Positions 12,745-38,238 of a stretch of DNA of 64,000 nt are shown piece by piece (the stretch's first letter is position 1; the number at the start of each line of letters is the position of its first letter). Location: assembly GCA_937982655.1 (NCBI GenBank), contig CALJLK010000407.1, positions 2,667 through 66,666 on the forward strand, written 5' to 3'. Origin of the DNA: an uncultured Sandaracinus sp. Its GTDB lineage: Bacteria; Myxococcota_A; Polyangia; Polyangiales; Houyiibacteriaceae. The translations under genes and the position numbers were made by a program. The notes under the pieces were generated by a model. That model was not told where the DNA came from, did no database searches, and worked only from the letters and a program-made list of their open reading frames with translations.

Positions 12745-12750
12745 TCCTCG

Positions 12751-13044: not shown

Positions 13045-13077
13045 TTGTGGCCGGTCGGCGGGGTCAGCCGCCGACGA

Positions 13078-17200: not shown

Positions 17201-18554
17201 CGCGCGACATGCCGCAGCTCGCCGCCACCGGCACGAGCGCGTCCTGCGACATGCTCTGCAGCGCCTCGCTCGCGTCGATCGCGAGGCGCGTCGCCTTGAG
17301 CGGATCGTTCACGGACGCCTTGCCGAGCCCGACGATGAAACGAAAACGTCCGCGTCCGAGCCCGTCCGGCCACGAGAGCACCGCGTCGTTCTTGTAGGCG
17401 ATCGACTCGAGCACCTTCACCGTCTCGTCGTCGCAGGAGACCTCGCCGGACTTCGTGTCCTCGCCGCTCGTGCCCGACGTGCCGGTCGCAGCGCCCTCCG
17501 CGCGCAGGCGGCTCGCCACGATCACCACGCGCCGACGCTCGCGCAGCTCGCGCGCCTCGACGTCCGAGAGCAGCGTCGCACCCGCCGCGAGATCCGAGAC
17601 CCCACCGCGTCGCGCCTCCGGGCTCGTGGCCTCGCGCGGCGCGATCTCGTGGATGAACGTCTCGAGCCCCTCGCCGTCCCACACCTGCTCTTCGGTGTGG
17701 AGGAACTGCGTGAGCGCGCCCGACATGATGCGCGCGCTCGCGTAGCGGTCGTCGCGATCGGGCGCGGTCGCGCGCCGCACGATGCGCTCGAGCCCCCGCG
17801 GCACGTTCGGATCGACCTGGCTCGGCAGCGTGAGCTCCGCCGCGCGTACCTTCTCGAGCACGTCGAGGCCATGGATGCCCGGATACATCGGGCGCCCCAT
17901 CAGGAGCTCCGCGAGCACCACCCCGAGCGAGTACACGTCGCTGCGCGCGTCGACGCGTTCACCCCGCGCCTGCTCGGGCGACATGTAGCTGAACTTGCCT
18001 TTGATGACGCCGGTCTCCTCCGTGACCATGCGCGCCTTCGCGATGCCGAAGTCGCCGACCTTCACGACGCCGTCGTAGGTCAGCAGCACGTTCTGCGGGC
18101 TCACGTCGCGGTGCACGATCTCCATCGGCACGCCCGCCTCGTCCTTGCGCTGGTGGGCGTAGTGCAGTCCCTTGGCGATCTCCTGCGCGAGGAACGCGCA
18201 GAGCCCGAACGGCAGGCGCTTTCCGCTGCGACGCGTGGCCGCGACGAGGCGCCCGAGATCGAGCCCGTCGACGAGCTCCATCGCGAGGAGGAACTCGCGC
18301 CCGACCTGCTCGAACGCGTAGACCTGCACGATGTTCGGGTGGTTGAGGCGCATCGCGACCTTCGCCTCGTCGACGAACATCGAGATGAACTTCGCGGAGC
18401 GCGCGAACGACGGCAGCACGCGCTTGAGCACCAGCAGCTTCTCGATGCCCTCGGCGCCGGTCGACTTCGCGAGGAAGACCTCGGCCATGCCGCCGGTGCC
18501 GAGGCGTCGGAGAATGCGGTAACGACCGAGCTGCTCGGGGAGGTCGTCGGACAT
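14283..18554 (-). CDS. Ser/Thr protein kinase fused to cyclase-homology-like domain, AAA (P-loop) ATPase and TPR repeats
   Basis: Track ORF 14283..18674- trimmed to ATG 18554 (MSDDLPEQLGRYRILRRLGTGGMAEVFLAK). Kinase motifs are HRDVSPQNVLL, DFGIAK and SYMSPEQ. A class-III-cyclase-like segment follows (RRVVIVASRL...VGNVLEVAERLADAAPRSEVLVSGE), then the P-loop VVGPLGVGKTSLV and a long TPR-like C-terminus. Confidence 0.9.
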   Translation of the reverse strand: MSDDLPEQLGRYRILRRLGTGGMAEVFLAKSTGAEGIEKLLVLKRVLPSFARSAKFISMFVDEAKVAMRLNHPNIVQVYAFEQVGREFLLAMELVDGLDLGRLVAATRRSGKRLPFGLCAFLAQEIAKGLHYAHQRKDEAGVPMEIVHRDVSPQNVLLTYDGVVKVGDFGIAKARMVTEETGVIKGKFSYMSPEQARGERVDARSDVYSLGVVLAELLMGRPMYPGIHGLDVLEKVRAAELTLPSQVDPNVPRGLERIVRRATAPDRDDRYASARIMSGALTQFLHTEEQVWDGEGLETFIHEIAPREATSPEARRGGVSDLAAGATLLSDVEARELRERRRVVIVASRLRAEGAATGTSGTSGEDTKSGEVSCDDETVKVLESIAYKNDAVLSWPDGLGRGRFRFIVGLGKASVNDPLKATRLAIDASEALQSMSQDALVPVAASCGMSRGIVSVVRDPNGRLLRYAPVGNVLEVAERLADAAPRSEVLVSGEIHRLIRRDFAFEEEEVREVDVRTEHGSAPRAIKAWLLRGARTQREREAARAVEAMDLVGRDDELEMLGRLYAEIGDARRTQFAAVVGPLGVGKTSLVRRAIASFDPAPTVLRAECGYGGADVPFGAVTALIQSALGDDDGPEAQLARLEELLGRAVRARSARRDDVARLVHAVRPLFGLAEPVREGEGDRSGMIRRALELLVSVLAHDAPVVVWLDALQWADGPSLELLGQMRQRTYDARCLVVMASRSLPSGGIDERLMPVFRSVPWIELKELAPEATRTLVRARFGAQVPEDVLHLVENRAGGNPFFVVELVDALLERQVVRVEGKGPDRRIVRKPGVPIALPTTLEGVVAARLDELGDRERQTLRWLAVAGSGLKVDDLTTLMGVDTTEALGTLEKRGLVHVGEGGGFAFPNAVVRQVAYEATDLDDRSRIHRRIAQHLAAHAAPVGVGRVARHLEQAGERSAAAKAYLEAATAALAVYSNRDALRFYGKALELLSPEEHDARFSAHEGREQILRFLGRPHEQLRELEAMRALAERGGGPRRRAVALLRMARFDLDNARTGEVDELVPQALASARAAGDPKLEIDGLRLEAELARDRGEPDRGLEACRVALERAGTTRELLSSRAAILVQKGILLRRLGRSDEAFEAYAEAIVIFRRLGIRRNEAFALNSLGVALAANGAYEDAITAFRASIHIDRETGDRLRLGRKLSNVGQLYDALGDTRRGLSFVKRALDVFEAVDDKAGRCDAYAAEAEMMLDEGSPPASAALPLDQARRIAERLSSNYEIARERIVRARLERLAGDAERAKSAAREALEAARAERLVSYEVHALAELAAAHALAEDRQDALTRAREARERLAGIDVERPEKVYRLLAELFASLGEEADAQELFDEAYELLDAKARSIRSDTTRARFLDSRDVRAIREGARA

Positions 18555-18660
18555 CGGACGCGGGATCGTACCCGAAGCGCGGGGCGATCGCGCGTCTCGC
18601 GAACGCCCGACACGAACGTTCGAAGCCGACCAGCAGCACGCAAGTTGATATGCTCTCCGC

Positions 18661-19110
18661 GTGAGCTTCGACATCGACGACGCGACCGCCGCGAGCCTGC
18701 CGCCCTTCGTGGAGGTCGAGATGGTCTATCAGACCGGCCACGCGGGCATGGACACCGCGCCGTGGCGCGCGCTCGAGATCTGGACGCGCAACCGCATCTA
18801 CGGCTGCGACTGGAGCATGCGCTGCATCGACGTGCTCGACCGCGAATCCGGTCGCGCCGACGGCGACAGCTCGCTGCTCGGCGCGCGGCTCGCGGGCGGT
18901 CAGCTCCACACCGAAGAGGGCATCGAGGTCACGCACCCCTGGCCACGTCCGGGCTCCGAAGCCGTCTTCGAGCACGCCGCGCGCAAGGGCTACGTCACGA
19001 CCTCGACCGTCACGCGCGTGATCTTGCGAATGCGCGTGCTGACCGTGCCGCAGCAGAAGATCGAGCCGACCTGGGACGATCTGACGATGTCGAAGCGGCG
19101 CGGGAGCTGA
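18661..19110 (+). CDS. hypothetical protein
   Basis: Track ORF of 149 aa with a GTG start. GC3 is strongly biased throughout, and composition is balanced (W, Y, C, H present). Divergent from the kinase gene across a 106-bp spacer. I recognise no motif. Confidence 0.6.
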   Translation: MSFDIDDATAASLPPFVEVEMVYQTGHAGMDTAPWRALEIWTRNRIYGCDWSMRCIDVLDRESGRADGDSSLLGARLAGGQLHTEEGIEVTHPWPRPGSEAVFEHAARKGYVTTSTVTRVILRMRVLTVPQQKIEPTWDDLTMSKRRGS

Positions 19111-19224
19111 GCGAAGCGCTCCGCGAGGGAGCCCGGGACGAGCTGGCGTCTCGCTCTCCCGCGTCGCTCGTCACCGCGTCGGCGGCTTCTCACCCCCGAG
19201 GGCTCCGAGCACCGCGGCTCCGCT

Positions 19225-21402
19225 TCACTCGATCGCGCGCAGGTCCGCGCGATCCTCGCCGCGCGAGAACACCGGCGGCGATCCGATCGGCGCGTCCACC
19301 GTGATCTCCTGCCCCCCCTCGTACGACTCGCCGGTCCAGACGTGGAACCAGGTGCCGGGCGGCAGGTAGAGCGTCCGCGTGGTCGCGCCGGGCTCGATCA
19401 CCGGCGCCACGTAGAGCGCGTCGCCGATCATCATCTCGTGGCTCACGTCCCAGCTCGCGCGGTCCTCCGGGAAGACCAGCATCGGGTGCCGCAAGATCGG
19501 CGCGCCCGTGCTTTGCGACTCGTCGGCGAGCTCGCGGAAGAGCGGCGCGAGCGCCTGGTGGACGCGCGCGAAACGGCGGAAGTGCGCGATGGTCTCGGCG
19601 TTGGAGCTCCAGGTCCAGTTCTCCATCTTCTTGTTGCCGTCGTGCGTGCGGAAGATCGGCGTGAACGCGCCGAGCTCCGTCCAGCGCTGGAAGAGCTCCT
19701 GATCGCTCGGTCCGCCCGAGAAGCCCGCGACGTCGTGGGTCACGTTCGGCTGCCCGGAGAGGCCGAGGTTCAAGAGCGCGGGCACCACCGTGGGCAGTCC
19801 GTCGTGCTCCGACCACGTCGCCTCTTGGTCGCCGACCCAGTGGATCTGCGCGACGCCCTGCACGCCTGTCCATCCGGCGCGCGCGAAGAACGCGTAGTCG
19901 CCGTCCGGTCGCGCCTCGTCGAGCACCTCGCGCGCCATGCGCTGCCACTCGATCGGGTAGCGGTTGTGGTAGCCGATCGGATCGCTGCCGTCGCTCATGA
20001 CGGCATCGAGCGGGTTCCACTCCGAGAAGTCGTGCATCCAGCCGTCGATGCCGAAGTCGTCGACCATCGCGCGCAACGCGTCTTGCACGTACGCCACCGC
20101 GGCCGGATTCGTCAGATCGGGATGACCCGCCATCAGCGTGGGCGAGTTGGGCGCGGTGAAGCGGTAGCTCGCGCCCATCGGGTCGCGCACGAGGAGGCCC
20201 GCCGCTTCCATGGCGTCGAAGTGATTCGGCAACGACGGATCCACGAACGGGTTCGCGTAGGCGAGGAACTTCTTGCCGTCCGCGTGCAGGTCTTCGATGA
20301 ATTCTCGGAGCGTCGGGTAGAGCTCTTCGTCCGCTTCCCAGCGGTACTCCACGCCGAATCCGCCGTCGACGTTTCGCCGAATCCCCGTCCAATCCTGCAC
20401 CCAGAGCGCGCTCCACGGCACGTCGTGCTCGGCGAGATCGGCGACCTCCTGCTCGATCGACGCCTGGCCGCCCTGGCTCGCGATCCAGGTCCCGAACGCC
20501 CACTCCGGCATCGGCGCGGGGCGACCGACGACGTCGCCGAGCTGGCGCACCACGTCGAGCGGCGTCGGGCCGTGGAAGACCACCCACTCGATCGGCTCCG
20601 CGGTCACGACCTCGACGAACGCCACACCGGAGTCCTCGAAGTCGACCCCCTCCGCGTCGCCGTCCTCGTCGGGGACGCAGAGGCTCACGTTCACGCGTTG
20701 ATCGGTGGTGAAGAGCACCCCGTGACCACGCGCGTCGAGCCAGTACGGCATCGGAAAATACGTCGTGTGATCGTTGCCCGCGACGGGGAAGAACCCTCCC
20801 GGTTCGCGGCCGATGCCTTGTTCGGACACGAACAGACCGAAGGCCTCACCGCGCTGGTTGGTGGCGTTGTATTGCTCACCGAAGCCGTGGAAGGTCGCGT
20901 CGGATTCGCAGAGCACCGGCACCGCGACCGACGTCACCTCGGCGGTCTCGCCGAGCAGCTCGAGGCGGAATGCGGTGCGGTCGGGCCCGTCCTCGCGCAC
21001 GTGGAGGCGCGCCGAGAACGACGTGTCGGTGCTCGGCGGGCCGGGGTCGTACGCGAAGCCGATGACGAGCGTTCCGTCCGCGTCGAGCCGCGGCTCGCCG
21101 ACCGCATCGAGCCGCACCCGCTTGGGCACCGGGTCGCCCGCCGCGTCGGTGCGCGTGCGCTCGCGGAAGCTCCAGATCGCGAGGGGCCCGTTGGCCTCGA
21201 CGTCGTAGCGCGAGACGATCGGACCCTCGAAGGGCGGGATCACGAAGGGCCGTCGACCGTCGGGGAGCTCGAGCGCGACCTGTCCGTCCCAGCTCACGAC
21301 GACCGCGCGACCGTCGGCGAAGCGGAACGTGCGAGGCTTGGGCTCGGGCTTGGAGCACGCGAAGAGGGCGGTGAGCGCGAGAAGGAGCGAGACGCGGGAC
21401 AT
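19225..21402 (-). CDS. glycoside hydrolase family 31 lipoprotein (alpha-glucosidase/xylosidase-like)
   Basis: Track ORF of 725 aa. Lipobox MSRVSLLLALTALFACSK. GH31-like blocks are LWVQDWTG, FGIDGWMHDFSEW, FARAGWTGVQ, HWVGDQEATW and FRTHDGN. Confidence 0.85.
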   Translation of the reverse strand: MSRVSLLLALTALFACSKPEPKPRTFRFADGRAVVVSWDGQVALELPDGRRPFVIPPFEGPIVSRYDVEANGPLAIWSFRERTRTDAAGDPVPKRVRLDAVGEPRLDADGTLVIGFAYDPGPPSTDTSFSARLHVREDGPDRTAFRLELLGETAEVTSVAVPVLCESDATFHGFGEQYNATNQRGEAFGLFVSEQGIGREPGGFFPVAGNDHTTYFPMPYWLDARGHGVLFTTDQRVNVSLCVPDEDGDAEGVDFEDSGVAFVEVVTAEPIEWVVFHGPTPLDVVRQLGDVVGRPAPMPEWAFGTWIASQGGQASIEQEVADLAEHDVPWSALWVQDWTGIRRNVDGGFGVEYRWEADEELYPTLREFIEDLHADGKKFLAYANPFVDPSLPNHFDAMEAAGLLVRDPMGASYRFTAPNSPTLMAGHPDLTNPAAVAYVQDALRAMVDDFGIDGWMHDFSEWNPLDAVMSDGSDPIGYHNRYPIEWQRMAREVLDEARPDGDYAFFARAGWTGVQGVAQIHWVGDQEATWSEHDGLPTVVPALLNLGLSGQPNVTHDVAGFSGGPSDQELFQRWTELGAFTPIFRTHDGNKKMENWTWSSNAETIAHFRRFARVHQALAPLFRELADESQSTGAPILRHPMLVFPEDRASWDVSHEMMIGDALYVAPVIEPGATTRTLYLPPGTWFHVWTGESYEGGQEITVDAPIGSPPVFSRGEDRADLRAIE

Positions 21403-21424
21403 GGCCCGCGGACCATAGCAGCGC

Positions 21425-22063
21425 TCAACCCTCGTAGCGGCTGCGTCCGTCGCCTTCGACGTACTGCTTGAGCGTCCACGGGATCTTCAAGATCCACTCG
21501 TGCAGCGTCGGACGCACGAGGCCGCTCAGGAGCCCGTCACCGACGTCGACCATCGCGCCGAAGCTCAGCAGGGTCTGGTTCTCGCCCCAGCGACGCACGC
21601 GCATGAAGCCCCAGCCCGCGCGGATCGTGTGTGGGTGCGACTCGTCGAGCTGGAAGAGGACTGCCTTCTGCTGGTCGTCGTATTGGAAGCGCATCGCGTA
21701 GGTCGCGCGCACGACACCCACGCGATGCTCGAAGTGCATCACGCGCAGGTTCTCTTCTTCGCGGATCTGCCGCGCGGAGTGCACCTGCGGGAGCATGCGG
21801 CGCAGGTGCTCGGGCTCGTCGTGGAGCGCGCGCCACACCGCGCGTGGCGGCAGGTCGACCACCTGGAAGCTCGTGCCGCCGATCAGCGTGAGCGGGCCGC
21901 GACGTTCGCGGACGCGACGCAGCACGATCGAGCCGCGGTCGAGCTGCGCACGCTCCGACTCGGTGAGCGCGGAGCGGATGGCGATCGGCTGTGCGGACGA
22001 CGGCCACGCCGAAAGCGCGGCGAGCAACACCGCGAGGGTGAGCGCCGGGGGGCCGATCCGCAT
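21425..22063 (-). CDS. secreted SRPBCC (START/polyketide-cyclase-like) family protein
   Basis: Last 212 aa of track ORF 21425..22636-. ATG 22063 is preceded by GAGGAG. Signal peptide MRIGPPALTLAVLLAALSAWPSSAQP. The mature region resembles SRPBCC ligand-binding folds (recalled, not motif-proven). Confidence 0.65.
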   Translation of the reverse strand: MRIGPPALTLAVLLAALSAWPSSAQPIAIRSALTESERAQLDRGSIVLRRVRERRGPLTLIGGTSFQVVDLPPRAVWRALHDEPEHLRRMLPQVHSARQIREEENLRVMHFEHRVGVVRATYAMRFQYDDQQKAVLFQLDESHPHTIRAGWGFMRVRRWGENQTLLSFGAMVDVGDGLLSGLVRPTLHEWILKIPWTLKQYVEGDGRSRYEG

Positions 22064-22433
22064 GACTCCTCGATGTAGCAGCCGTGGAACGTGCGTCGAG
22101 GCCCGAAACATGGGGCGTCGGACGGGGCGCGTGGGGATTTGCTTCAGAATCACGATGAAATCCGGAAAGAACGGAAAAGCACACGAGGCAGACCGCCCCT
22201 GTCGCCGAGGCGGCCACGGGATCGGATCGGAGTGAGCCTTCGGTGCAGCCCGGGAGCGATCCGCCGCGTGAGCGCCATCCGGCGACCCAAGCGTTCGGAA
22301 GAGCACGGCGGGGTTCGTGGCTGCGAACCACGAACTCGGGTCATCGCGACCGCGGCGACGATCGAGGACGCGCCCCCGCGCGACGTCGATCTGCGGTTCC
22401 CGACGCGCGGACGCTGCATGTACCATCGACGCG

Positions 22434-23909: not shown

Positions 23910-24683
23910 TCACCCGCGACGGCGCCGAAGCGCGACGAGCACCGTCGCGACGAGCGCGAGCTCTCCCGACGCGTGGCCCCTGGGGGCGCGGCCCACCCGA
24001 CACGAGCAGCCGCCGCTGACCGCCTCGTGCTCGTGACCTCCGGCGTCGCGGCCTCCCGCGTCGCGCGTCCCCGCGTCGCGCGTCCCGCCGTCGATCGACG
24101 TCCCCGCGTCGATCGCGACGCCCGCATCGATCGCCACGCCCGCGTCGGTGCCCGCGCGTGGCACGAGCACGAGGTCCGCGCACTGGTAGTAGTTGTCGTT
24201 GCCGCCGATCGTGTACGGCCGCTTGTCGTACATCACCTGGATCACCTGCAGCGTGCAGCGATCGCAGACCACGTCCGGCAGCGTGACGGTGATCGTCTGC
24301 TCCCGCGCGGGATCGTCGACCACGTGGTCGAGCAGTACGATCGCGGGATCGCCCGGTGCGAACACCGGATCGGGGCCGCTCGTCTCGCAGTTCTCGACGC
24401 AGACCGGGTCCGCGAAGTCGTCGTGTCCGTCGACGTCGAACGCCACGCGGTAGTGGCTCGGGTGATCGATGTACGCCTCGATCACGATCTCGATCGTCTG
24501 CCCCGCCTCGAAGGTCGTCACCGCCGAGCCGCGCACGCTCCCGGCCGCGCCGCACGGGGCGTCCTTGAGCTCCTCGCCGCCATCGCGTGCCGCGGGCGCC
24601 ACGAGGTGAAGGTGTGCGTGCGCGGGCGAGGCGAGACACCACGTCACGAGACACGACGCGAACGGGACGAGCGCGATCCGCAT
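23910..24683 (-). CDS. secreted LPMO-like (N-terminal His after signal cleavage) protein with MYXO-CTERM anchor
   Basis: Track ORF 23910..24770- trimmed to ATG 24683. Signal MRIALVPFASCLVTWCLASPAHA, then a mature N-terminus HLHLVAPAARDGG. Six Cys in the globular domain. DAGVAIDAGVAIDAGTSIDGGTRDAGTRDAGGRDAGG linker. The terminal GGCSCRVG...LALVATVLVALRRRRG is a MYXO-CTERM-type sorting signal. Confidence 0.75.
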   Translation of the reverse strand: MRIALVPFASCLVTWCLASPAHAHLHLVAPAARDGGEELKDAPCGAAGSVRGSAVTTFEAGQTIEIVIEAYIDHPSHYRVAFDVDGHDDFADPVCVENCETSGPDPVFAPGDPAIVLLDHVVDDPAREQTITVTLPDVVCDRCTLQVIQVMYDKRPYTIGGNDNYYQCADLVLVPRAGTDAGVAIDAGVAIDAGTSIDGGTRDAGTRDAGGRDAGGHEHEAVSGGCSCRVGRAPRGHASGELALVATVLVALRRRRG

Positions 24684-24759
24684 ACCGAGAGAGTACCAGC
24701 GCTCGGGGACCGAGCGCGTCACCGCCGCTGCGCGGACGAAGCTGCTACCTTGGCGCGCG

Positions 24760-25677
24760 ATGAGCCCCACTGGCGTCGGTCTCGGTCTTCGCGCGGCGAT
24801 GGCGCGCGAGTTTCTCGCTCGGATCCCCGACGAGGTCGCGTTCGTCGAGGTGCACCCGGAGAACTACGTCGGACGCGGCGGCCTCTACCGGCGCAACCTC
24901 GATCGCGCGCGCGATCGTTATCCGGTGCTCACCCACGGGCTCACGCTCGGCTTCGGCAGCACCGAGCCCTTCGATCGTGCGTTCCTCGCAGACGTGCGCG
25001 CCTTCCTCGATTCGGTGAACGCGCCTTGGCACAGCGATCACCTCTGCTTCGGCGGGGCGGGCGACGCGTTCGTGCACGATCTCCTGCCGATCCCGTTCAC
25101 GGATGAGTCGGTGAAGACCGCGGCGCGACGCATCACCGAGATGCGCGACGCGCTCGATCGGCCAGTCGCGTTCGAGAACCTCTCCTACTACGTGCCGCTC
25201 GCGAAGGATCCGCTCGACGAGGCGCGGTTCTGCGTCGAGGTCGCCGAGCACGCGGACTGCGCGATCATGCTCGACGTCAACAACGTCTTCGTGAACAGCC
25301 GGAACTTCGGCTTCGATCCGCGGAAGTGGATCGACCTCGTGCCCGCGCATCGCGTGGTGCAGATGCACGTCGCCGGACACCTCGTGCGCCCCGACGGGTT
25401 GCGCATCGACACCCACGGCGAGCCCGTCCCCGACGGCGTGTACGAGCTGCTCGACTACACGCTGCGCAAGCTCGGGCCGCGGCCGGTGCTGCTCGAGCGC
25501 GACAACGACATCCCGTCGCTGGACGAGCTGCTCGCGGAGGTTCGGCGTTTGAACGAAGTGTACGCGGCGGCGACGAGCGCGGGTGTTTCGAGCGTTCCGT
25601 CTACGACCACGACCACGTCCACGTCCACGACCACGACCGCGTCCACTTCTTCTTCTCACGCGGAGGTCGCGAAGTGA
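24760..25677 (+). CDS. DUF692 / multinuclear non-heme iron oxidase (MNIO; MbnB/TglH/BufB/HvfB family)
   Basis: Track ORF of 305 aa. GVGLGLR...EVAFVEVHPENY, LTHGLTLGFGS, WHSDHLCF, FENLSYY, MLDVNNVFVNSRNFGFD, MHVAGH and VLLERDN are the characteristic TIM-barrel blocks of DUF692 proteins. There is an unusual Thr/Ser-rich C-terminal tail. Confidence 0.9.
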   Translation: MSPTGVGLGLRAAMAREFLARIPDEVAFVEVHPENYVGRGGLYRRNLDRARDRYPVLTHGLTLGFGSTEPFDRAFLADVRAFLDSVNAPWHSDHLCFGGAGDAFVHDLLPIPFTDESVKTAARRITEMRDALDRPVAFENLSYYVPLAKDPLDEARFCVEVAEHADCAIMLDVNNVFVNSRNFGFDPRKWIDLVPAHRVVQMHVAGHLVRPDGLRIDTHGEPVPDGVYELLDYTLRKLGPRPVLLERDNDIPSLDELLAEVRRLNEVYAAATSAGVSSVPSTTTTTSTSTTTTASTSSSHAEVAK

Positions 25678-26432
25678 TCCCGCTCGCGGAGCACGAGCGC
25701 CTCGCGGCGGCGGTGTGTTTCTCGCGTGAGCTCGACGACGTCGTCGTGGCCACGCTCGCGGGCGGCGATGCGCTCGCGGACGAACGTTGGCGTGTGTACC
25801 GCGAGATGATCCGCTCACGCTTCCGCAAGGTCGTGCAGGCCGCGCTGCCTCGCACCACCCACGTGCTCGGCGATCGCTTCGAGGCGCGCTTCGCCGCGTG
25901 GCTCGACGAAGCGCCGCCCGACACCCGCTTCTTCCGTGAGGTCCCGGTCGGCTTCGCGCACCACGTGGAGGCGTGGCTCGCCTCGCCCGGAGCGGCCGAT
26001 CTCCCGGCGTTCACGGCCGACATCGCGCGCTACGAGATCGCGCGATGGCGCGTGCTCGCGGCACCCGACGACGAGCCCGCGCAGGAGCTCTCCTTCGAGC
26101 GCCCGCCGCAGTTGACCCGCTCGCTCGCGCTGCTCGACGTGACCCACGCGGTGCACGCGAAGAAGAAGGGGCCTCCGAAGGCCGGCGTCGCACACCTCGC
26201 GATCTACCGCGCGCCGAAGGACGACGCGTTCGAGGCGGTCACGCTCGAGCTGAACGAGCTCGCGCGCGATCTGCTCCGCGCGTGGTCGGACCCGAGCGAG
26301 ACCCCACTCGCCGCGCGGGTGCAGGCGGTCACGCAGGCCCGCGGGACCGCGATCGACGAACGTTTCCTCGAAGGCCTCGGGACGCTGCTCGAAGATCTGC
26401 TGCGACGCGGCGTCGTGCTCGGCTCGCGCTGA
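25674..26432 (+). CDS. DUF2063-type partner protein (BufC/HvfC-like putative peptide-binding subunit)
   Basis: In-frame GTG 25674 inside track ORF 25326..26432+, overlapping the MNIO stop (GTGA). WRVYREMIRSRFRKVVQAALPRT...FFREVPVGFAHHVE resembles DUF2063 N-terminal domains. GC3 is high only from about 25674 onward. Confidence 0.8.
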   Translation: MIPLAEHERLAAAVCFSRELDDVVVATLAGGDALADERWRVYREMIRSRFRKVVQAALPRTTHVLGDRFEARFAAWLDEAPPDTRFFREVPVGFAHHVEAWLASPGAADLPAFTADIARYEIARWRVLAAPDDEPAQELSFERPPQLTRSLALLDVTHAVHAKKKGPPKAGVAHLAIYRAPKDDAFEAVTLELNELARDLLRAWSDPSETPLAARVQAVTQARGTAIDERFLEGLGTLLEDLLRRGVVLGSR

Positions 26433-26658
26433 GCGCTCGTGTGGAGGTCGTGAGCGTGCGCTCGCCACGGGCATGCACGTGCGGTCGTCGTCGTGAAGGT
26501 GAACGCGAATCGAGCCGCTCGACGTCGCGTTCGACATGGCCCGCGCGTCGATGCGACCCTCGACACCTCGGCTCGTGGCTCTAGAGCCCGAGCTTCGACT
26601 GCGACGACGCGCGGAACCACGGCCTCGCTTCGGCGTCGGACGCAGTGTTCTCGAAAGG

Positions 26659-26850
26659 ATGACGATGACTCTGCGCCTCTTCCTCGCTCTGGCCTCTCTC
26701 TCCCTCGTCGCGTGCGGCGGCGGCGAAGAGACGACCTCGACCACCGCGACCGACGAGACCTACACGACGTCGGGCGACGAAGCCGAAGCCGCCGAGGACG
26801 ATCCGCCGGAGCCGGACTACGACGATCCGGACATGGCCGACGGGATGTGA
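26659..26850 (+). CDS. 63-aa hyper-acidic small lipoprotein (candidate MNIO substrate)
   Basis: Track ORF 26536..26850 trimmed to ATG 26659, where GC3 bias begins. MTMTLRLFLALASLSLVACGGG (lipobox), then EETTSTTATDETYTTSGDEAEAAEDDPPEPDYDDPDMADGM. There is no Cys after the lipobox Cys. Confidence 0.6.
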   Translation: MTMTLRLFLALASLSLVACGGGEETTSTTATDETYTTSGDEAEAAEDDPPEPDYDDPDMADGM

Positions 26851-26866
26851 GGCCGACGGGATGTGA
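26835..26866. repeat. perfect 16-bp tandem duplication spanning a stop codon
   Basis: GGCCGACGGGATGTGA occurs at 26835-26850 and again at 26851-26866. A degenerate third copy GGACGGACGCGATGGGTGA lies at 26867-26885. The first copy encodes the last residues ADGM plus the stop of the 63-aa ORF. Confidence 0.9.
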
Positions 26867-27015
26867 GGACGGACGCGATGGGTGAGACGCCTCGATCCTT
26901 CTCATCCTCGCTTCCGCCGACGCCTTCCGACGCGGGCGCATCGTGCGATCGACGACGTCCCGACATCGGTGCGCTCGAAGAACGGCACGAGGACGCGTGA
27001 GCAGGCGTCGCCTGC

Positions 27016-27594
27016 GTGCGACGATGCGGCGTGAGCGTCTGGTACTTCGCGTATGGCGCGAACATGGCGACCGACGTGATCGTGGGTCGGCGTGGGTTGA
27101 AGGTGCTCGAGAGCCGCGCGGGTCGCGCGGTGGGTTGGCGCGTGGGGTTCGTCGAGCGCGGGCTACCGCTCGTGGAGCCTGCCTTCGCGGGGCTCGTGTC
27201 CGACGAGGTGATGGAGGCGCGGACCGACGAGGCACGCGAAGCGCTCGAACGCACGACCACCGACGCGTGGGGCGTGCTGCACCGCGTGTCGGAGAGTGAT
27301 CTGCGTCGGCTCGATCGTTTCGAAGGCCCGGGCTACCTGCGGCGCGCGGTCGCGGTGCGCGACCGTGAAGGTCACGAGGTGGAGGCGCAGGCCTACACGT
27401 CGCCACGACCGATCGCGGGTCGCGCGCCTTCGCGGCGCTACCGCGATCTGCTGCTCCACGGCGCGCACGAGCACGCGCTGCCGGCGTCGCACCTCGCATG
27501 GCTGAACGGACATCCGACGAGGTACGTGCCGGGGCTCGCAGAGACGCTGGAGCTCGTGGTGCTGGCGGCGGAGCGGCTGCGACGTCGGCGTTGA
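27016..27594 (+). CDS. gamma-glutamylcyclotransferase (GGCT/AIG2-like) fold protein
   Basis: Track ORF of 192 aa. WYFAYGANM is the hallmark YGSNM-type N-terminal motif, followed by FEGPGYLRR. The start is GTG 27016 or GTG 27031. Confidence 0.75.
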   Translation: MRRCGVSVWYFAYGANMATDVIVGRRGLKVLESRAGRAVGWRVGFVERGLPLVEPAFAGLVSDEVMEARTDEAREALERTTTDAWGVLHRVSESDLRRLDRFEGPGYLRRAVAVRDREGHEVEAQAYTSPRPIAGRAPSRRYRDLLLHGAHEHALPASHLAWLNGHPTRYVPGLAETLELVVLAAERLRRRR

Positions 27595-27814
27595 GCGGTG
27601 GTCGCTCGTCCGCTCCGGCGGCAACGGATCGGACGTTCTGCCGATCCACGCGAGTCCACGCGAACGCGAACGACGCGCTGCGTTGGCGCGGCGCGTCGTT
27701 CGGAACCAGGGCGATGGATGCGTGCGGGGCTTCGCACTTCGCATCGCGCGGCGCGTAGCGCCCTACGCGGTGGGGCGCTTCGTCACGCGGGTCGCGAGCC
27801 CGAGGACGACGTGC

Positions 27815-28009
27815 TCAAGCGAGGCGGCGGCCCCAGCACTCGACCTCGATGTCGATGCGGGCGTTCGGGAGCTCGCGGGCGGTGAGGCCGACGTCGAGGT
27901 CGTCTTCGTCGAGCGAATCGGCCCACATGGCGGGGAGGTGGGAAAGGCGGTCGAGGCCTTCGAAGATGTGCTGCTCGTGGTCTTCGACGGTGGTGATGGC
28001 GTAGGACAT
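27815..28009 (-). CDS. 64-aa acidic hypothetical peptide with single C-proximal Cys
   Basis: Last 64 aa of track ORF 27815..28231-. ATG 28009 is preceded by GGGGGA about 8 nt upstream. GC3 is near 90 percent, versus a mixed GC3 in the antisense ORF 27683..28027+. Sequence: MSYAITTVEDHEQHIFEGLDRLSHLPAMWADSLDEDDLDVGLTARELPNARIDIEVECWGRRLA. Confidence 0.5.
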   Translation of the reverse strand: MSYAITTVEDHEQHIFEGLDRLSHLPAMWADSLDEDDLDVGLTARELPNARIDIEVECWGRRLA

Positions 28010-28256: not shown

Positions 28257-28931
28257 ATGGTCGTCGGAGCCATCCTCGCTGGCGCATTCGCCGGCCTCGC
28301 GAGCCTCCCACATTGCGCGGGGATGTGCGGCCCGCTCGCGGCCTTCGCGGGGCGCGACCGACGATCGACGGGCCTCTACCTCGCGGGGCGCTTCGTCAGC
28401 TACGTCGCGCTCGGCGCGCTCGCGGGCGCGTTCGGCGCGACGATGGTGGGCTGGATGGAGCGGCCGCTCGCGCAGGCGCTCCTGAGCTGGACGCTCGGGG
28501 CGGGGCTCGCGCTCACCGCGTGGCGCTTGTGGCGCGGCGGCGCGTCGCGGCCGGCGAAGCTGGTGACGCTGCGGACGAAAGACGAAGCGCGCCGCGCGAC
28601 GCTGCGGGCGCCGCTGCTCGGGTTGATGACGGGCTTTCTTCCGTGCGGCGCGCTCGCGGCGGCGCTTTTGCTCGCAGCAGGCTCCGGCGACGCGCTCACG
28701 GGCGGGCTCACGCTCCTCTCGTTCGCGAGCGCGAGCGCGCCAGCGCTGCTCGGAGCGGGCGTGGCGGCGAGCTACCTGCGTCGCGCGGGCGAGACGCCGC
28801 GCAAGCTGCTCTCGGTCGCGCTCGCGCTCGGCGCGATCGTGCTCTTGCTGCGGCCGATCGACGCGCTGCGCGGCGAGCCGGCGGAGTGTCACGGCGCGCG
28901 GGTCGTCGTGGGAGTGGAGGCTCGGTCGTGA
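28257..28931 (+). CDS. DsbD_2 / TauE-SafE-like membrane protein (HCxxMCGP motif)
   Basis: Track ORF of 224 aa and polytopic. Contains ASLPHCAGMCGPL and a second LPCGAL motif. The stop overlaps the ATPase start (GTGA 28928-28931). In my recollection this family commonly accompanies CcoI/FixI-type ATPases. Confidence 0.75.
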   Translation: MVVGAILAGAFAGLASLPHCAGMCGPLAAFAGRDRRSTGLYLAGRFVSYVALGALAGAFGATMVGWMERPLAQALLSWTLGAGLALTAWRLWRGGASRPAKLVTLRTKDEARRATLRAPLLGLMTGFLPCGALAAALLLAAGSGDALTGGLTLLSFASASAPALLGAGVAASYLRRAGETPRKLLSVALALGAIVLLLRPIDALRGEPAECHGARVVVGVEARS

Positions 28932-31327
28932 GCGAAGAGAGATCGCGCGGAGCCGTATCGGCGGAGTCGTCGCCGCGCACGTGTCTGCACTGCGGGCTGC
29001 CCGTGCCCTCCGAGAACAGCGCGTGGACGCGCGAAGGCTTCTGCTGTCCGGGCTGCCGCAGCGTGTACGGCATCCTGCGCGCGGGCGGGCTCGAGAAGTA
29101 CTACGCGCTGCGCGACGGAGTCGGCGTGCCGGTGGGCGCGGTCGGCGAGCGCGGCGACGCGGAGCGCGATTGGCTCGACGCGGCGAAGGGCAAGCCGCAC
29201 CTCGACCTCGACGTCCAGGGCATGCACTGCGCGGGCTGCGTGTGGGTGATCGAAGAGCTCTTCGAGCGCCGCGGGCCGGGCAAGATCGAGCTCGATCCGA
29301 CGCTCGGGCGCGCGTCGATGTTGCTGCCGGAGGGCTTCGATCTCGAAGGCTTCGTCAGCGACGTCGAATCGCTCGGGTACCAACTCGCGCCCGCGTCGAA
29401 CGATCCAGATCACACGACCGCCGCGAGCGATGCGTTGCTCTTGCGCGTCGGCATCTGCATGGCGCTCGCCGGCAACGGCATGCTCTTCGCGGCCGCGAGC
29501 TACTTCGGCCTCGACGTGAGCGACGGCGCCATCTACCGGCTGCTCACGCGGCTCGCGTTCGCGGCCGCCGCGCTCGCGGTGTTGGTGGGCGGCAGCGTGT
29601 TCGTGAAGGCCGCGTGGCAAGGTCTGCGACGCGGCGTGGTGCACCTCGATCTGCCGATCGCGCTCGGTGTGATCGCGAGCTTCGCGGGCGCGACGTGGAG
29701 CTTCGTGCGCGACGGCGAGGCGCGCTTCGCGGACACCGTCACCGTCTTCATCGCGCTGATGCTGCTCGGGCGGTGGGTGCAGGAGCGAATGCTCGAGCGC
29801 AACCGACGTCAGCTCCTCGCGGACCACGGCGGTGAGGCGCTGCGCACGCGCCGGGTCGACGAGGACGGCGTGCGGCTCGTGCGCGCGACGGAGGTGAAGG
29901 AAGGCGACGTGCTCCAGCTCGGCGCGGGCGATCTCGTGCCGGTGCAGAGCGCGCTGCTGGAGAGCGCGTCGACGTTCTCGCTCGATTGGATCGACGGAGA
30001 GAGCGCGCCGCGCACGTTCGAGGTCGACGCGATCGTGCCGGCGGGCGCGTTCCACGTGGGGCGCGGGACGCGGCGGGTGCGCGCGACCGAGAGCTTCGAG
30101 ACCTCGGCGGTGAAGCGGCTCCTGCAGCGCACGCGATCGCTCACCAGCGATCCGGGCGCGTGGTGGCAGCACGTCGCGCGTTGGTACGTGCTCGGCGTGA
30201 TCGGGGTCGCGGTCGGCGCGTTCGCGACGTGGTGGTCGCTCGAAGGGATCGAGCGCGCGATCGAGGTCGCGACCGCGGTGCTCGTGGTGACCTGTCCGTG
30301 CGCGTTCGGCATCGCGACGCCGCTCGCGTACGAGCTCGCGCACGCGCGGCTTCGTCGGCGCGGGCTCTTCGTGCGCACGCGCGCCTTCCTCGACCGCGCG
30401 CGCGAGGTCACGCGGATCGTCTTCGACAAGACGGGCACGCTGACGACTGGGCGGCTCGCGCTCGTGAACGAGGACGCGCTCGACGCGCTCTCGGCCGAAG
30501 AGCGCGAGGTGCTCGCGAGCCTGGCCGCGGCGAGCACGCACCCGAAGAGCGCGGCGGTGATGCGCGCGCTCGAAGCCCGGGGCGTGGTGGGCGCACCGCG
30601 CGACGTGGTGGAGACGACGGGGCGTGGGGTGTCGGTGCGCGTCGGCGACGTCGAACATCGGCTCGGCGCGCCGGGTTGGGCGGGCGAAGGCACGGGCGAT
30701 CTGGTCTACGGGGTCGGCGACGTGACCCGCGCGGATCTGCGGACCGAAGAGCGCCTCCGCCCCGACGCCGCGCGGGAGCTGCGCGCGCTCGGAGACGCCG
30801 GCTACTCGACGTGGATCCTGAGCGGCGACGATCCGGTGCGCGTGAAGACGCTCGCGCGCGAGGTGGGCATCCCGGAGGAGCGCGCGCTCGGCGGGCACGA
30901 TCCGGAGGCGAAGGCGGCCTTCGTGGCCGCACACGATCCCGCGCACACGATGATGATCGGCGATGGCCTCAACGACAGCCTCGCGGTCACGACGGCCGCC
31001 TGCGCAGGCACGCCCGCGATCGATCGCCCGTTCCTCGCGTCGCGCTCGGACTTCTACTTCACGACCCCGGGCCTCGGTCCGATCCTCGACGCGCTCGCGA
31101 CCGCGAGTGAGCTCGGCCGCGTGGTGCGCGCGCTGCTGGCTTTCGCGGTCGCCTACAACGTGCTCGCGGTGGCGATCGCGTGGGCGGGCTGGATGGAGCC
31201 CTGGCTCGCCGCGCTGCTCATGCCGGCGTCGTCGCTCGCGAGCCTCGCGTACACGCTCACGGCGCTGGGCCCGAAGACGAGCCCGAAGCGCGAGCGGGTG
31301 CGCGCGCTGCGGACCGTCGAGGCCTGA
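28928..31327 (+). CDS. copper-translocating P1B-type ATPase (CcoI/FixI-like)
   Basis: In-frame GTG 28928 within track ORF 28106..31327+. N-terminal CLHCGLPVP...GFCCPGCRSVY metal-binding module. Contains TCPCAFGIATP (CPC), FDKTGTLT, ASTHPKS (HP motif) and MIGDGLNDS. Confidence 0.9.
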   Translation: MSEERSRGAVSAESSPRTCLHCGLPVPSENSAWTREGFCCPGCRSVYGILRAGGLEKYYALRDGVGVPVGAVGERGDAERDWLDAAKGKPHLDLDVQGMHCAGCVWVIEELFERRGPGKIELDPTLGRASMLLPEGFDLEGFVSDVESLGYQLAPASNDPDHTTAASDALLLRVGICMALAGNGMLFAAASYFGLDVSDGAIYRLLTRLAFAAAALAVLVGGSVFVKAAWQGLRRGVVHLDLPIALGVIASFAGATWSFVRDGEARFADTVTVFIALMLLGRWVQERMLERNRRQLLADHGGEALRTRRVDEDGVRLVRATEVKEGDVLQLGAGDLVPVQSALLESASTFSLDWIDGESAPRTFEVDAIVPAGAFHVGRGTRRVRATESFETSAVKRLLQRTRSLTSDPGAWWQHVARWYVLGVIGVAVGAFATWWSLEGIERAIEVATAVLVVTCPCAFGIATPLAYELAHARLRRRGLFVRTRAFLDRAREVTRIVFDKTGTLTTGRLALVNEDALDALSAEEREVLASLAAASTHPKSAAVMRALEARGVVGAPRDVVETTGRGVSVRVGDVEHRLGAPGWAGEGTGDLVYGVGDVTRADLRTEERLRPDAARELRALGDAGYSTWILSGDDPVRVKTLAREVGIPEERALGGHDPEAKAAFVAAHDPAHTMMIGDGLNDSLAVTTAACAGTPAIDRPFLASRSDFYFTTPGLGPILDALATASELGRVVRALLAFAVAYNVLAVAIAWAGWMEPWLAALLMPASSLASLAYTLTALGPKTSPKRERVRALRTVEA

Positions 31328-31330
31328 AGC

Positions 31331-34300
31331 TCAATCGCGCAACAGGCGCTCCAACGTCTCCAGATCCACTCGCACGTCCGCGTCGTCCGCGTCCGCGAGC
31401 AATCCCTCCGCGAGGCTGCGTTTCTGATCGTGGATCGCGAGGATCTTCTCCTCGACGCTTCCCTGCAGCACCAGGCGGTACACCGTGACGGGGCGCGTCT
31501 GGCCGATGCGGTGCGCGCGATCGCTCGCTTGGTCCTCCGCGGCGGGGTTCCACCAGGGATCGAGGTGCACCACGTAGTCGGCCGCGGTGAGGTTCAGGCC
31601 GGTGCCGCCCGCCTTGAGGCTGATGAGGAAGAGATCCCCCTCGCCGTCTTGGAACGACGCGACCTCACGCTCGCGCTGCTTCGGGGAGGTGCTTCCGTCG
31701 AGGTAGCGGTAGGGGATCCCGCGCGCGTCGAGGTCGCGGCGCACGAGCGCGAGCAGGTCCACGAACTGGCTGAACACCAGCGCGCGGTGGCCGCCGTCGC
31801 GGAGCTCGTCCACGAGCTGCATGAACGCTTCGAGCTTCGCGCTCGGCACCTTCGTGCGCGGCGAGACGAGCTCGGGCGCGCAGCACGCGCGGCGCTGGCG
31901 CATGAGCGCGGCCAGCAGCGCGAAGCGGTGGTCCTTGGCGTCGGCGAGAGTGCGCAGATCCTTGCGACGCAGCGCCTCGAGGAACGCGAGCTGGGCGTCC
32001 GAAGGCTCGACGTGGAGCACGAGCTCGGTGCGCGGAGGAAGCTCGCGAAGCACGGTGCGCTTCTCGCGCCGAAGCACGAAGGGGCGCACGCGTTCGCGCA
32101 GGCGCCGCCCGGGGTTTCCGGGTTGGAACGCGTGACCCTCCACGTCCGCCACGGGCTTGATGAAGTTTCCTTGAAAACTTCGTTTGGTACCGAGGAGTCC
32201 GGGCACCAAGAATCGAAACAGACTCCAGAGCTCGCCGAGGTGGTTCTCGATCGGAGTGCCGGAGAGCGCGACGCGGGCGTCGGCGCGGAGGCGATGGGCC
32301 GCGCGCGCGGTCTGGGTCGTCGCGTTCTTGATCGCTTGGGCTTCGTCGAGGACCGCGGTCGTCCAGGCGCGCGACGCGAAGAGCTCACCGCGGGTCGGCA
32401 ACATGCCGTAGCTCGTGAGCACCACGTCGAAAGGGCCCGCGTCGCGCACGATCGTTTCGGCGTCCTCACTCGCGATCCCGGCCCCGAGCACGTGCACGCG
32501 CAGCGAAGGCGCGAAGCGCGCGGCCTCGTCGCGCCAGCCCGCGAGCACGCTGGTGGGCGCGATCACGAGGGCCGCACCGTCGCGCGCCCGATCGAGCAAG
32601 AGCGCGAGCGTCTGCACGGTCTTGCCGAGGCCCATGTCGTCCGCGAGGCAGGCCCGGAGGCCCGCGCGGCACAGGCGCGCCATCCAGCGGAATCCTTCGA
32701 CCTGGTAGGGGCGAAGCTCCGCGTCGAGGGTGCGCGGCACCGGGATGTCCGCGTGCATCGCCTCGCGCAAGCGCTCGCGCTCGACCTCCACGCCGCGCAG
32801 CTCGAGCTCGGGGTCGTCGAGGAGCGCGACGAGCGGATGCAGCGCGCCCTCGTCGGTGAAGGCTTCGAGGCGCTCCAGCGCGCGTTGCAGCGACGCGGTG
32901 AGCTCGAGATAACGATCGTCGTCGAGGCGCACGAAGCGACGCTCGCGGCGCACCGCGTCGAGCAAGGCCTCGTAGGTCGCCACGAGCTGTCCGTCGAGCT
33001 CGAGACCGCCGCTCGGCTCCAGCCAATCGTCGCGTCGCGCGACGCGTACCGCCAGCGTGCCGGTCGCGGGCTCCACGCGGAGCGGCGCACCTTCGCGCCA
33101 CTCGACGTGGGCGTTCGCCGCGCGCAGCTCCGCGAGCAGATCGAGCGTCGTGTCGAGCGAGCACGCGCCGTGATCGCGTCGACCGAGCGTCGGGCACGCG
33201 TCGAAGAGCACCGCGCGCGCGAGCACCTCCGCGCGGCGATCGCGTTTCGCTCGGCGGCCCTTGGCGATCACGGTGTCGTGCCCTTCGCCGGGGCGGAGCG
33301 CGGGACCGTCCGGACCGAGCGGGGAGACGACGAGCTCGAAGCCGACCACGCCCGCGTCGCGGTGCAGACGCACGCGCACCGTCGAGTCCGCGCGCACGTC
33401 GTCGAGGGTGTCGATCGCGAGATCCGCGGTGGCGTCGACGGTGAAGAGCGGTGAGAGCGCGGCGACCAGCTTCTCGAGCTCGTCGCGGGCTTCGAGCGGC
33501 AGCTCGAACGCGCCGTCGAGCGCACGCGCAGCTTCGGCCTGGCGCGCGTCGAGCACCACCGCTTCGAGGTGGGTGCCGCGATCGACCAGACCGGTGGAGC
33601 GTGGCTGCACCGCGAGCGTGAAGGCCTCGGCGTCTTCGGTGATCGCGAGCCGCGCGGCGCCGCGACGCACCGGGATCGGCGACGGGTTCGGCGACGGGTC
33701 GTCGCGGCGCGTGACGCGGGGATGACCGACCAGCGCTTCGACGAAGAGCGCGTCGTGCAGGAAGATCCCGTCGCGCGTCACGTAGCGGAAGCCTCCGCGC
33801 GCGTGTTGGCCGAGCGCCTGGAAGAGACGGCGGTCCTCGTCGGGCACGCCGGTGCCGATCGGGCGACGGATCATGCGCGCGAGCTCGACGACCTTGCCCC
33901 GCGACCAGCCGTTCTTGCTCACGCGTTGCTCGCGCACCGTGAGCCCGTCGATCCGATCGTCGCGGAGCTCGAGGGCCCAGAGGTAGCGCACTTGAACCGG
34001 CGCCGGCGCGGCGACCTCGAGCGCAGCCTGTACGCGCCTCAACGTACGACGCCACGGCGGCTCGACATCGAGGAGCGCGAGCAGGGTGCTGCGCGCCGCG
34101 CGCGAGCCCTGCAGCAGATCCCGCAGCTCGGTGGCCTCGTGCGCGAGCCAGGGCACGTGGACGAGCTCGTCGAGCCGACGGGTGAGCGGATCGGCCGCGC
34201 GGCGCCGTCGATCGAGATCCGACACGAACGCCGCGTGCACGAGCGCGTACGCGAAGGTGCACCAGAAGCCTTCGTCGCGGGCGATCCAGGCCTCGATCGA

Positions 34301-35179: not shown

Positions 35180-35223
35180 GAGCGATGCGTGAGAGCGGAG
35201 AGAGTTGCTCGACGAGCTTGCGT

Positions 35224-36159: not shown

Positions 36160-36282
36160 GGGCGCGGAGAGTAGTCGCGGGGCCGCGAGGCGCGAGGAGG
36201 TTTCTCGGGCAGCGCCACGCGAACGACCTGCGCACGACTCTCCACGCGGTGACACGTGTGTTCGTGGTATCCACACGTCGTC

Positions 36283-37860: not shown

Positions 37861-37936
37861 CGCGAGCCGTCTTCCGAGTCCGAGGCCGCCAAACCCTCAT
37901 TGACGGAACCACCGACCCGGCACAGGGTTCGCGCCC

Positions 37937-38233
37937 ATGGCGAAGGTACGCTTCGAGCCCAGCGGCTACGAGACCGACATCACCCCCGGCACGCGCTTCA
38001 TCGACGTGACGGACGAGCACCCCGAGGCCGAAGTGCCCTACAGCTGCCGTTCGGCGAGCTGCGGGACCTGCCGCGTCGAAGTGAAGGAAGGCCACGCGCA
38101 CCTTCTCTCGCCCGAAGACGACGAGCTCGAAGTGCTCGAGGTGTTCGGCGACGACCCGAAGCAGATCCGCCTCTGCTGCCAGATCCGCCTGAAGGACGAA
38201 GGCCGCGTCGTCCTGCGCGTCGTCGAGCCCTGA
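37937..38233 (+). CDS. 2Fe-2S ferredoxin (plant-type fold)
   Basis: Track ORF of 98 aa. YSCRSASCGTCRVEV plus a downstream LCCQ gives the Cx4Cx2C...C cluster ligands. Confidence 0.85.
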   Translation: MAKVRFEPSGYETDITPGTRFIDVTDEHPEAEVPYSCRSASCGTCRVEVKEGHAHLLSPEDDELEVLEVFGDDPKQIRLCCQIRLKDEGRVVLRVVEP

Positions 38234-38238
38234 GGGCG

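Follow-up and report, generated by a model that had tools for sequence, protein, structure and literature searches.

An HvfB/HvfC-type MNIO–PME1 pair in a Sandaracinus contig without its cis precursor gene and with a linked small lipoprotein gene

Enzyme pairs composed of a multi-iron oxidase of the MNIO (DUF692) family and a type 1 partner protein (PME1) turn cysteine into 5-thiooxazole on Sec-exported copper-binding peptides (PMC11626156, PMC11252979, PMC13097082). The closest described systems are Hvf/oxazolin of Haemophilus influenzae (HvfA/HvfB/HvfC) together with the fontiphorin/gonophorin "captophorins" (PMC11252979, PMC13097082) and the bufferins (BufA/B/C/D) of Caulobacter and other bacteria (PMC11626156, PMC12452194); ChrH/DybH-type DAG-RiPPs (PMC13056109) and methanobactin (MbnABC) also depend on an MNIO. 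Surveys count about 4,000 MNIOs without a recognized adjacent precursor (PMC11626156, PMC12452194), and a sizeable share of bufferin precursors is unlinked to the MNIO genes (PMC12452194). DoxX is a frequent but not obligatory accessory of the class (PMC11626156, buf2). Here we analyze an MNIO–PME1 pair without an adjacent precursor gene in a 64,000-nucleotide stretch of an uncultured Sandaracinus sp. contig (CALJLK010000407.1; hereafter the window), and we compare it with the corresponding loci of its relatives, most of which have kept that gene. The locus consists of three genes on one strand and the divergent region upstream of them:

24684–24759, no strand: divergent intergenic region of 76 bp, holding the box CTGCTACCTT (sequence comparison)
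24760–25677, plus strand: MNIO (DUF692) enzyme of the HvfB/BufB type, 305 aa (PF05114)
25674–26432, plus strand: PME1 partner with a DUF2063 N-domain and a C-domain like the RiPP recognition element (RRE), 252 aa (PF09836, HvfC, AlphaFold2 model)
26659–26850, plus strand: small acidic "TDETYT" lipoprotein, last gene of the operon (orthologs follow the PME1 gene)

The region has a G+C content of ~70%, and G+C at third codon positions (GC3) is 0.82–0.92 for every gene named in an earlier note on this DNA. The earlier note had described an MNIO and DUF2063 pair overlapping at GTGA and a 76-bp divergent region upstream of it, and both descriptions hold: PF05114 and PF09836 match the two products, the TGA stop of the MNIO gene overlaps the GTG start of the partner gene by 4 nt (GTGA at 25674–25677), and the divergent gene is the one at 23910–24683 on the minus strand.

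The MNIO matches PF05114 (MbnB_TglH_ChrH) with 308.4 bits (E = 4.6e-92; gathering score 25), its residues 5–267 spanning profile positions 1–261 of 263, and is a member of the superfamily. The best NCBIfam model is HvfB (NF003818) with 293.6 bits and the second best BufB (NF050167) with 273.2 bits, under the respective equivalog cutoffs of 360 and 310; by these scores HvfB and BufB are the closest subfamilies, yet the enzyme is not a strict equivalog. In a 30-sequence alignment of relatives, H59, H91/H94, E139, D172, N175, H203, D217, H219, E246, and D248 are invariant, and on the pattern of MbnB structures and FonB these residues are presumably the iron ligands and the catalytic Asp (D248). 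Residues ~268–305 (25561–25677) form a Thr/Ser-rich low-complexity tail that is absent from most relatives. D248 is equivalent to the catalytic Asp249 of FonB (PMC13097082), and the closest solved structure is 3BWW (E = 1e-56), which itself comes from an MNIO–PME1 cluster (PMC13097082).

The partner matches DUF2063 (PF09836) above the gathering score, with 32 bits, and NCBIfam HvfC with E = 1.3e-17; its match to NGO1945_C/RRE (PF22106), at 19.6 bits, lies below the gathering score of 27. An AlphaFold2 model built on 12 sequences (mean predicted local distance difference test score 72) has a helical N-domain and a C-domain of three strands followed by three helices, and its best Foldseek matches, TglI (8HI7_A), NGO1945 (3DEE), and MbnC, are all MNIO partners. 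Judged by the profiles and this predicted fold, a PME type 1 partner (DUF2063 plus RRE) adjoins the MNIO.

No precursor gene accompanies the pair. Stop-to-stop open reading frames (ORFs) between 23.4 and 28.7 kb were listed with their Cys counts and GC3, and no small multi-Cys coding ORF was found in any intergenic gap of that interval. A regular-expression search for the repeat motif in all six frames of the whole 64 kb detected no precursor, tblastn with four related precursors against the 64 kb returned low-complexity compositional noise only, and a profile hidden Markov model (HMM) made from nine related precursors did not exceed 11 bits at any point of the window, compared with 94–126 bits in precursor-bearing loci. 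Among the small proteins called as genes, which were the ones scanned, we did not detect a DUF2282 or BUF_6/12Cys match. The earlier note had seen no small multi-Cys precursor beside the pair, and the ORF listing with the motif search, tblastn, and the profile HMM bear it out: the absence of a cis precursor is genuine and does not reflect an overlooked ORF.

At least 176 related loci (given here by handles of the form L001) were collected by scanning genomes and metagenomes with an MNIO alignment and by exact look-ups of the closest database proteins; the scans listed relatives of up to 62% identity, and the closer relatives came from the exact protein look-ups. Nearly every Myxococcota relative with enough upstream sequence (48–81% MNIO identity) encodes an HvfA-like precursor directly upstream on the same strand, including L001, L168–L170, L172, and L174, as do nearly all outgroups with enough upstream sequence. 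The precursors are 76–170 aa long, usually with a lipobox and an acidic Ala/Glu/Gly-rich spacer, and contain the repeat (E)ASCGGE / EASCGEGSCG two to six times, typically at the end of the protein. One of them passes the HvfA-family domain NF050137 (21.3 versus 19.5 bits) and others score just below it; on sequence grounds they are HvfA/oxazolin-type precursors in which Ser replaces Lys before Cys. Their signal peptide, MNSALKHT[LI][VI]AMATAAL, is almost invariant in L008–L013, L088–L091, and L168–L174 (for example, L168:4460–4735), though the MNIOs are only 56–80% identical; such conservation exceeds that of usual signal peptides, and the signal may double as a recognition (leader) element. 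L174 has two tandem HvfA-like precursor genes and, behind its lipoprotein gene, an additional ORF of 114 aa (2094–2828, 4741–5085).

The precursor is absent from the window, L004/L005 (90% MNIO identity), and L006/L007 and L171 (85–89%), which form one clade with identities of 87–93%, and also from L173, the sister of L174, so that a neighbor-joining tree gives two independent precursor losses. Three arrangements of the upstream flank occur within the window's clade: a gene of the SCE4755 family in the window, two WYL regulator genes plus a nitroreductase-like gene in L004/L005, and WYL regulator genes directly upstream in L007 and L171. The box CTGCTACCTT, at 24741–24750 in the window, stands 8–9 nt upstream of the MNIO ATG (9 nt in the window) and is kept in all four precursor-less loci compared (the window, L004 at 9982–9991, L171, and L007); loci with a precursor gene ahead of the MNIO gene do not conserve it. 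To judge from this distribution, it may be a promoter, a −10-like element of a leaderless transcript, gained after precursor loss. In Rfam, promoter, and terminator scans of 23–29 kb, neither sigma-70-like promoters nor intergenic terminators were found. Because orthologous loci keep a canonical precursor upstream, we place the pair in the known bufferin/captophorin class, as a member that has lost its cis precursor: the Cys-rich, signal-bearing precursor expected within a biosynthetic gene cluster of this class is missing here and present in the orthologs of 48–81% identity. The earlier note had proposed a system of unfamiliar class, which the HvfA/oxazolin-type Cys-repeat precursors directly upstream in those loci contradict; it had named orthologous loci with a canonical precursor as grounds against its own reading, and the HvfA-like genes largely supply them.

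The locus resembles the Hvf and captophorin systems in that its best models are HvfB and HvfC, its MNIO and partner genes are coupled, and its relatives' signal-peptide precursors have tandem x-x-x-C-G repeats that touch the HvfA-family model; by analogy, conversion of Cys to 5-thiooxazole and copper binding would be expected. It differs from these systems in having no cis precursor and an extra conserved gene for a small acidic lipoprotein after the partner, and the relatives' precursors have repeats of the form E-A/G-S-C-G rather than E-G-K-C-G and are lipoproteins with a lipobox rather than signal-peptidase-I substrates. At the position equivalent to FonB Phe250 stands Asn, DoxX is missing, and the scores fall below the equivalog cutoffs. 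With bufferins it has in common the MNIO plus DUF2063–RRE architecture and Sec-signal precursors, but the precursors found in this clade belong to the repeat type, whereas bufferin precursors are DUF2282 or BUF_6/12Cys proteins, and again there is no DoxX. The ChrH/DybH-type DAG-RiPPs are a precedent for lipobox-bearing, lipid-anchored MNIO peptides (PMC13056109), and both the clade precursors and the TDETYT protein carry lipoboxes; however, the ChrH model NF050165 gives 49.5 bits (cutoff 600), placing the enzyme in a different MNIO subfamily, and the C-terminal helical domain and CPxCGxG motif are lacking and the partner is PME1. Methanobactin biosynthesis shares the MNIO fold and a partner protein, and would share the Cys oxidation and copper binding expected here, but the MbnB model TIGR04159 reaches 39.7 bits (cutoff 325) and thus excludes membership, the partner is a DUF2063–RRE protein and not MbnC, and neither MbnA nor transport genes are present. 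In the published MNIO surveys consulted, we found neither such Myxococcota loci, nor captophorin precursors that are lipoproteins, nor the TDETYT protein mentioned. What sets these loci apart from the described systems, besides the missing DoxX, is the Ser-Cys-Gly repeats, the lipoprotein-type precursors, with precedent only in the ChrH subfamily (PMC13056109), and the strictly linked lipoprotein.

That lipoprotein is 63 aa long if translated from the ATG at 26659 and 61 aa from the ATG at 26665, the likelier start because AAGGA lies 5 nt upstream and the N-termini of orthologs agree with it. Its lipobox is LVAC, the lipobox Cys is the only Cys of the protein, and the tail is acidic and Pro-rich (..DPPEPxYxDP..). 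Orthologs directly follow the PME1 gene in L001–L006 and L169–L176, at spacings from a 4-nt overlap (L169, L172) to 245 bp; the spacer in the window is 226 bp. All outgroups lack the gene, and so does L168, whose precursor, MNIO, and PME1 genes are in place; it is present elsewhere and is kept with MNIO–PME1 in both independent precursor-less lineages. An exhaustive profile search of 1.84 billion representatives identified 15 clusters at 50% identity, compared with two proteins found by a word-index search, and the window lipoprotein was aligned with seven locus orthologs and 13 database representatives. The retrieved cluster members are 46–87 aa long (mostly 46–63; one 81, one 87) with a lipobox and an invariant core TDETYT(T/S); two fragments with incomplete N-termini and one 614-aa match, whose sequence was not retrieved, are left aside in this description. 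Of the members that could be looked up, the two most divergent also lie directly after a PME1 C-terminus, and the TDETYT family appears, from these sequences, to be exclusive to this operon. The co-conservation considered earlier for the flanking small ORFs therefore applies to the 63-aa lipoprotein, which adjoins PME1 across the clade, and not to a 64-aa ORF farther downstream, which recurs in none of the 171 collected loci that were scanned for homologs of the window's neighboring genes. Just upstream of the lipoprotein start, 26620–26658 contains a short conserved stretch, ..GCCTCGCTTCGGCGTCGGA.., followed by AAGGA; it is shared with L004, L006, and L171 and is possibly a small hairpin. The rest of the spacer is not conserved, and in L173 the spacer between partner and lipoprotein (4629–4873) is a (GGACCC)n hexamer tandem repeat of ~20 copies.

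Ratios of nonsynonymous to synonymous substitution rates (dN/dS) were determined for the window versus the precursor-less L004, L006, and L171 (dS 0.37–0.84) and are 0.17–0.19 for the MNIO, 0.16–0.25 for PME1, and 0.08–0.24 for the lipoprotein; since all three are under purifying selection, the precursor-less system is alive. Within PME1 of the precursor-less clade, dN/dS is 0.08–0.17 for the RRE-type C-domain versus 0.20–0.33 for the N-domain. The PF22106 score of this C-domain is 33–40 bits in precursor-bearing loci and 19.6, 23.4, or no match in precursor-less ones, subthreshold domains being confined to the two precursor-less lineages (the window, L004, L006, and L171; L173). The RRE domain thus looks shifted but not decaying and is, on these values, the most constrained part of the partner; such strong constraint within the precursor-less clade argues that it still recognizes something. 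When the MNIOs of the window's clade were compared with those of all precursor-bearing relatives, no alignment column passed a fixed-difference test, and the catalytic Asp (D248) and the ERDN motif were unchanged, which suggests that the specificity-determining region is essentially as it was. Partner cluster P0137 holds 26 near-identical versions (same 90%-identity cluster) from many metagenome assemblies, on contigs of up to 99 kb, and because of these copies we regard the precursor-less lineage as widespread; a 76%-identical partner cluster is annotated as Sandaracinus sp. metagenome-assembled genomes. The L004 partner (10954–11796) has a Ser-rich insertion of ~28 aa between its two domains, and low-complexity expansions seem frequent in the window's clade, the MNIO tail being another.

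On balance we favor, as the probable explanation, that the pair is an HvfB/HvfC-type maturase of the bufferin/oxazolin/captophorin class that has lost its cis precursor and whose precursor most likely lies elsewhere in the genome; by analogy with bufferins that are unlinked to their enzymes, an unlinked HvfA-like gene would most likely supply the substrate. An ancestral Polyangiales (Sandaracinus-like) operon would have contained, in this order, the hvfA-like lipoprotein precursor, MNIO, PME1, and TDETYT lipoprotein genes. In the window's subclade the upstream flank has been rearranged and the cis precursor gene lost, the other three genes being maintained by selection. The translationally coupled MNIO–PME1 complex would bind, in the cytoplasm, a Cys-Gly-rich precursor bearing a Sec/lipoprotein signal and oxidize each target Cys to 5-thiooxazole with O2, and the product would be exported, lipid-anchored, and buffer copper. 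The TDETYT lipoprotein would be a lineage-specific fourth component, serving the mature peptide as a partner or the enzymes as a second substrate.

Several observations speak against this explanation. No trans precursor was seen in the genome sequence covered, 64 kb. Two relocations of the precursor, each leaving MNIO, PME1, and lipoprotein behind, are less parsimonious than the lipoprotein being the substrate. The HvfB, BufB, and HvfC scores are all under the curated equivalog cutoffs, and no DoxX was detected among the window genes scanned or in the Pfam lists of the clade's related loci. The weakened RRE profile match in the precursor-less lineages hints at changed recognition, and the sole notable change in the MNIO of the window's clade, D13A (LRAAMA replacing LR[VFYMH]DMA), adjoins an Arg aligned with the substrate-gating Arg of FonB.

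The alternative that best survives, one we hold to be unlikely yet worth pursuing, takes the TDETYT lipoprotein itself for a substrate of MNIO–PME1 and, in the precursor-less lineages, the sole one, modified either at the single lipobox Cys, whose context A-C-G-G resembles the lost S-C-G-G repeat, or at non-Cys residues of TDETYT or PPEPxYxDP. A Cys-Gly-Gly sequence after the lipobox is, for its part, common among lipoproteins generally, which counts against such a reading of the resemblance. Linkage to PME1 wherever the gene is found, even in the two most divergent family members, fits a substrate, and its retention through two independent precursor losses makes a substrate role the more economical one. 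Purifying selection acts on both the lipoprotein and the partner's RRE domain, and divergence of that domain from its family model in precursor-less lineages only would be accounted for by a lipoprotein substrate; however, no MNIO column is fixed differently in the window's clade, and in most loci the lipoprotein coexists with a canonical precursor, while L168 has precursor, MNIO, and PME1 without it. It is small and signal-bearing like every known PME1-class substrate (PMC12452194), but its gene lies downstream and not upstream of the enzyme genes. FonBC can modify an NVCGG motif once (PMC13097082); still, every characterized MNIO–PME1 pair converts Cys, and the mature lipoprotein has none beyond the lipidation Cys, so that chemistry not known in this subfamily, or modification of the lipobox Cys, would be needed. 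The best match of the precursor HMM in the window and L004/L005 is the lipoprotein ORF, an insignificant one (11 bits, E = 0.075) with likeness only in the signal-peptide/lipobox region, and by sequence the lipoprotein is probably not a Cys-less paralog of the precursor.

It is very improbable that the pair is a functionless relic decaying after precursor loss. The missing cis substrate, the scores below equivalog cutoffs, the lengthening to 226 bp of the spacer before the lipoprotein gene, and the low-complexity C-terminal tail of the MNIO could all be read in this way, but the reading frames are intact with GC3 of 0.88–0.90, the His/Glu/Asp/Asn columns including D248 are invariant, the partner recurs in 26 near-identical metagenomic copies, and decay is contradicted by the selection estimates, with dN/dS of 0.08–0.25 across four diverged relatives.

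The genes around the operon had been read in the earlier note as possible parts, together with the pair, of a new MNIO-dependent peptide or metallophore system. They are the following, and the neighbors it listed are all real genes:

23910–24683, minus strand: SCE4755-family secreted protein, like lytic polysaccharide monooxygenases (LPMO-like) and BIM1, with a MYXO-CTERM-like tail (NF043005, PF20238)
27016–27594, plus strand: GGCT/AIG2-like protein (PF13772, E = 3.6e-12)
27815–28009, minus strand: acidic ORF of 64 aa with one Cys near its C-terminus (GC3 0.89)
28257–31327, plus strand: DsbD_2 gene overlapping a CPC-motif P1B copper ATPase gene (PF13386, TIGR01511/TIGR01525, PF12156)

The product of 23910–24683 scores 140.2 bits against NF043005 (cutoff 75) and so belongs to the SCE4755 family; it also reaches 27.8 bits against BIM1-like PF20238 (threshold 27), its MYXO-CTERM tail scores 17.9 bits, just below the cutoff of 20, and predicted cleavage between AHA and HLHL would leave His as its mature N-terminus. 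The 64-aa ORF gave no family match in Pfam and NCBIfam scans and has no signal peptide. The DsbD_2 gene (28257–28931; PF13386, E = 3e-27) is translationally coupled to the ATPase gene (28928–31327), whose product has a CcoI/FixI-type N-terminal metal-binding domain (PF12156). Homologs of the SCE4755, GGCT, 64-aa, DsbD_2, or ATPase genes were found near the MNIO gene in none of the 171 related loci scanned, which include the four closest relatives (85–90% MNIO identity); the neighbors of these relatives are instead WYL regulators, a nitroreductase-like gene, Tol/ExbBD genes, and ParDE. By this comparison, all five are chance or loosely thematic neighbors outside the system. The window locus and some related loci alike have flanking genes for a PP2C phosphatase and an SNF2 helicase, as matched by gene type, and the locus may sit at its ancestral chromosomal position with other genes shuffled in. 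Least probable of all is a multi-gene metallophore or copper system in which one neighbor is the substrate: the neighbors are real genes, several of them related to copper, the LPMO-like gene shares the 76-bp divergent region with the MNIO gene, the class is linked to copper stress (PMC11626156), and L170 has a MopE-like copper-binding gene nearby, but conservation of the five beside MNIO in 0 of 171 loci and the PP2C/SNF2 flanks (again by gene type), which suggest an ancestral position with inserted genes, argue against it.

The LPMO-like protein, which has x-x-C-G contexts, was considered separately as an MNIO substrate and rejected because its adjacency to the MNIO gene is unique to the window. 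The copper-binding gene of L170 (8973–10819) encodes a large protein with a MopE-type domain ~2 kb from the operon and is not conserved. In L004, the operon is closely followed by a ParD/ParE toxin–antitoxin pair (12692–13233) and an RND efflux pump, which suggests a rearrangement-prone region. Rfam reported the Pseudomonas small RNA P5 at 28707–28788 on the plus strand, inside the DsbD_2 coding sequence, with a subthreshold 33.6 bits (gathering score 60; E = 0.007), probably by chance. Farther out, 13078–22150 and 31331–42237 have ordinary myxobacterial content; among the products encoded in this wider context are a patatin-like lipase, a Ser/Thr kinase of 1480 aa that has AAA and TPR domains, a GH31 glycosidase, an SRPBCC-like secreted protein, a PP2C phosphatase whose tail is long and acidic, an SNF2 helicase (~1390–1650 aa), a 2Fe-2S ferredoxin, a pseudouridine synthase, and YchF.

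MNIO–PME1 clusters are among the most abundant systems for peptides made on the ribosome and modified after translation (RiPPs), and thousands of them have no recognized precursor. The locus described here is a clean, phylogenetically resolved case of the origin of such an orphan: the cis precursor has been lost and the enzymes remain under selection. It raises the question of whether pairs of this kind use unlinked precursors in trans or work on a second, noncanonical substrate. The small lipoprotein family, not described before and strictly linked to the partner gene, is a real and testable lead: were the lipoprotein a substrate, enzymes regarded as dedicated to the conversion of Cys to thiooxazole would act on a peptide that lacks internal Cys as well, or on the lipobox Cys, and form a new class of MNIO product. 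Captophorin-type precursors of the Myxococcota, to judge from their sequences, are lipoproteins with Ser-Cys-Gly repeats, which extends the link between MNIO RiPPs and the lipoprotein pathway.

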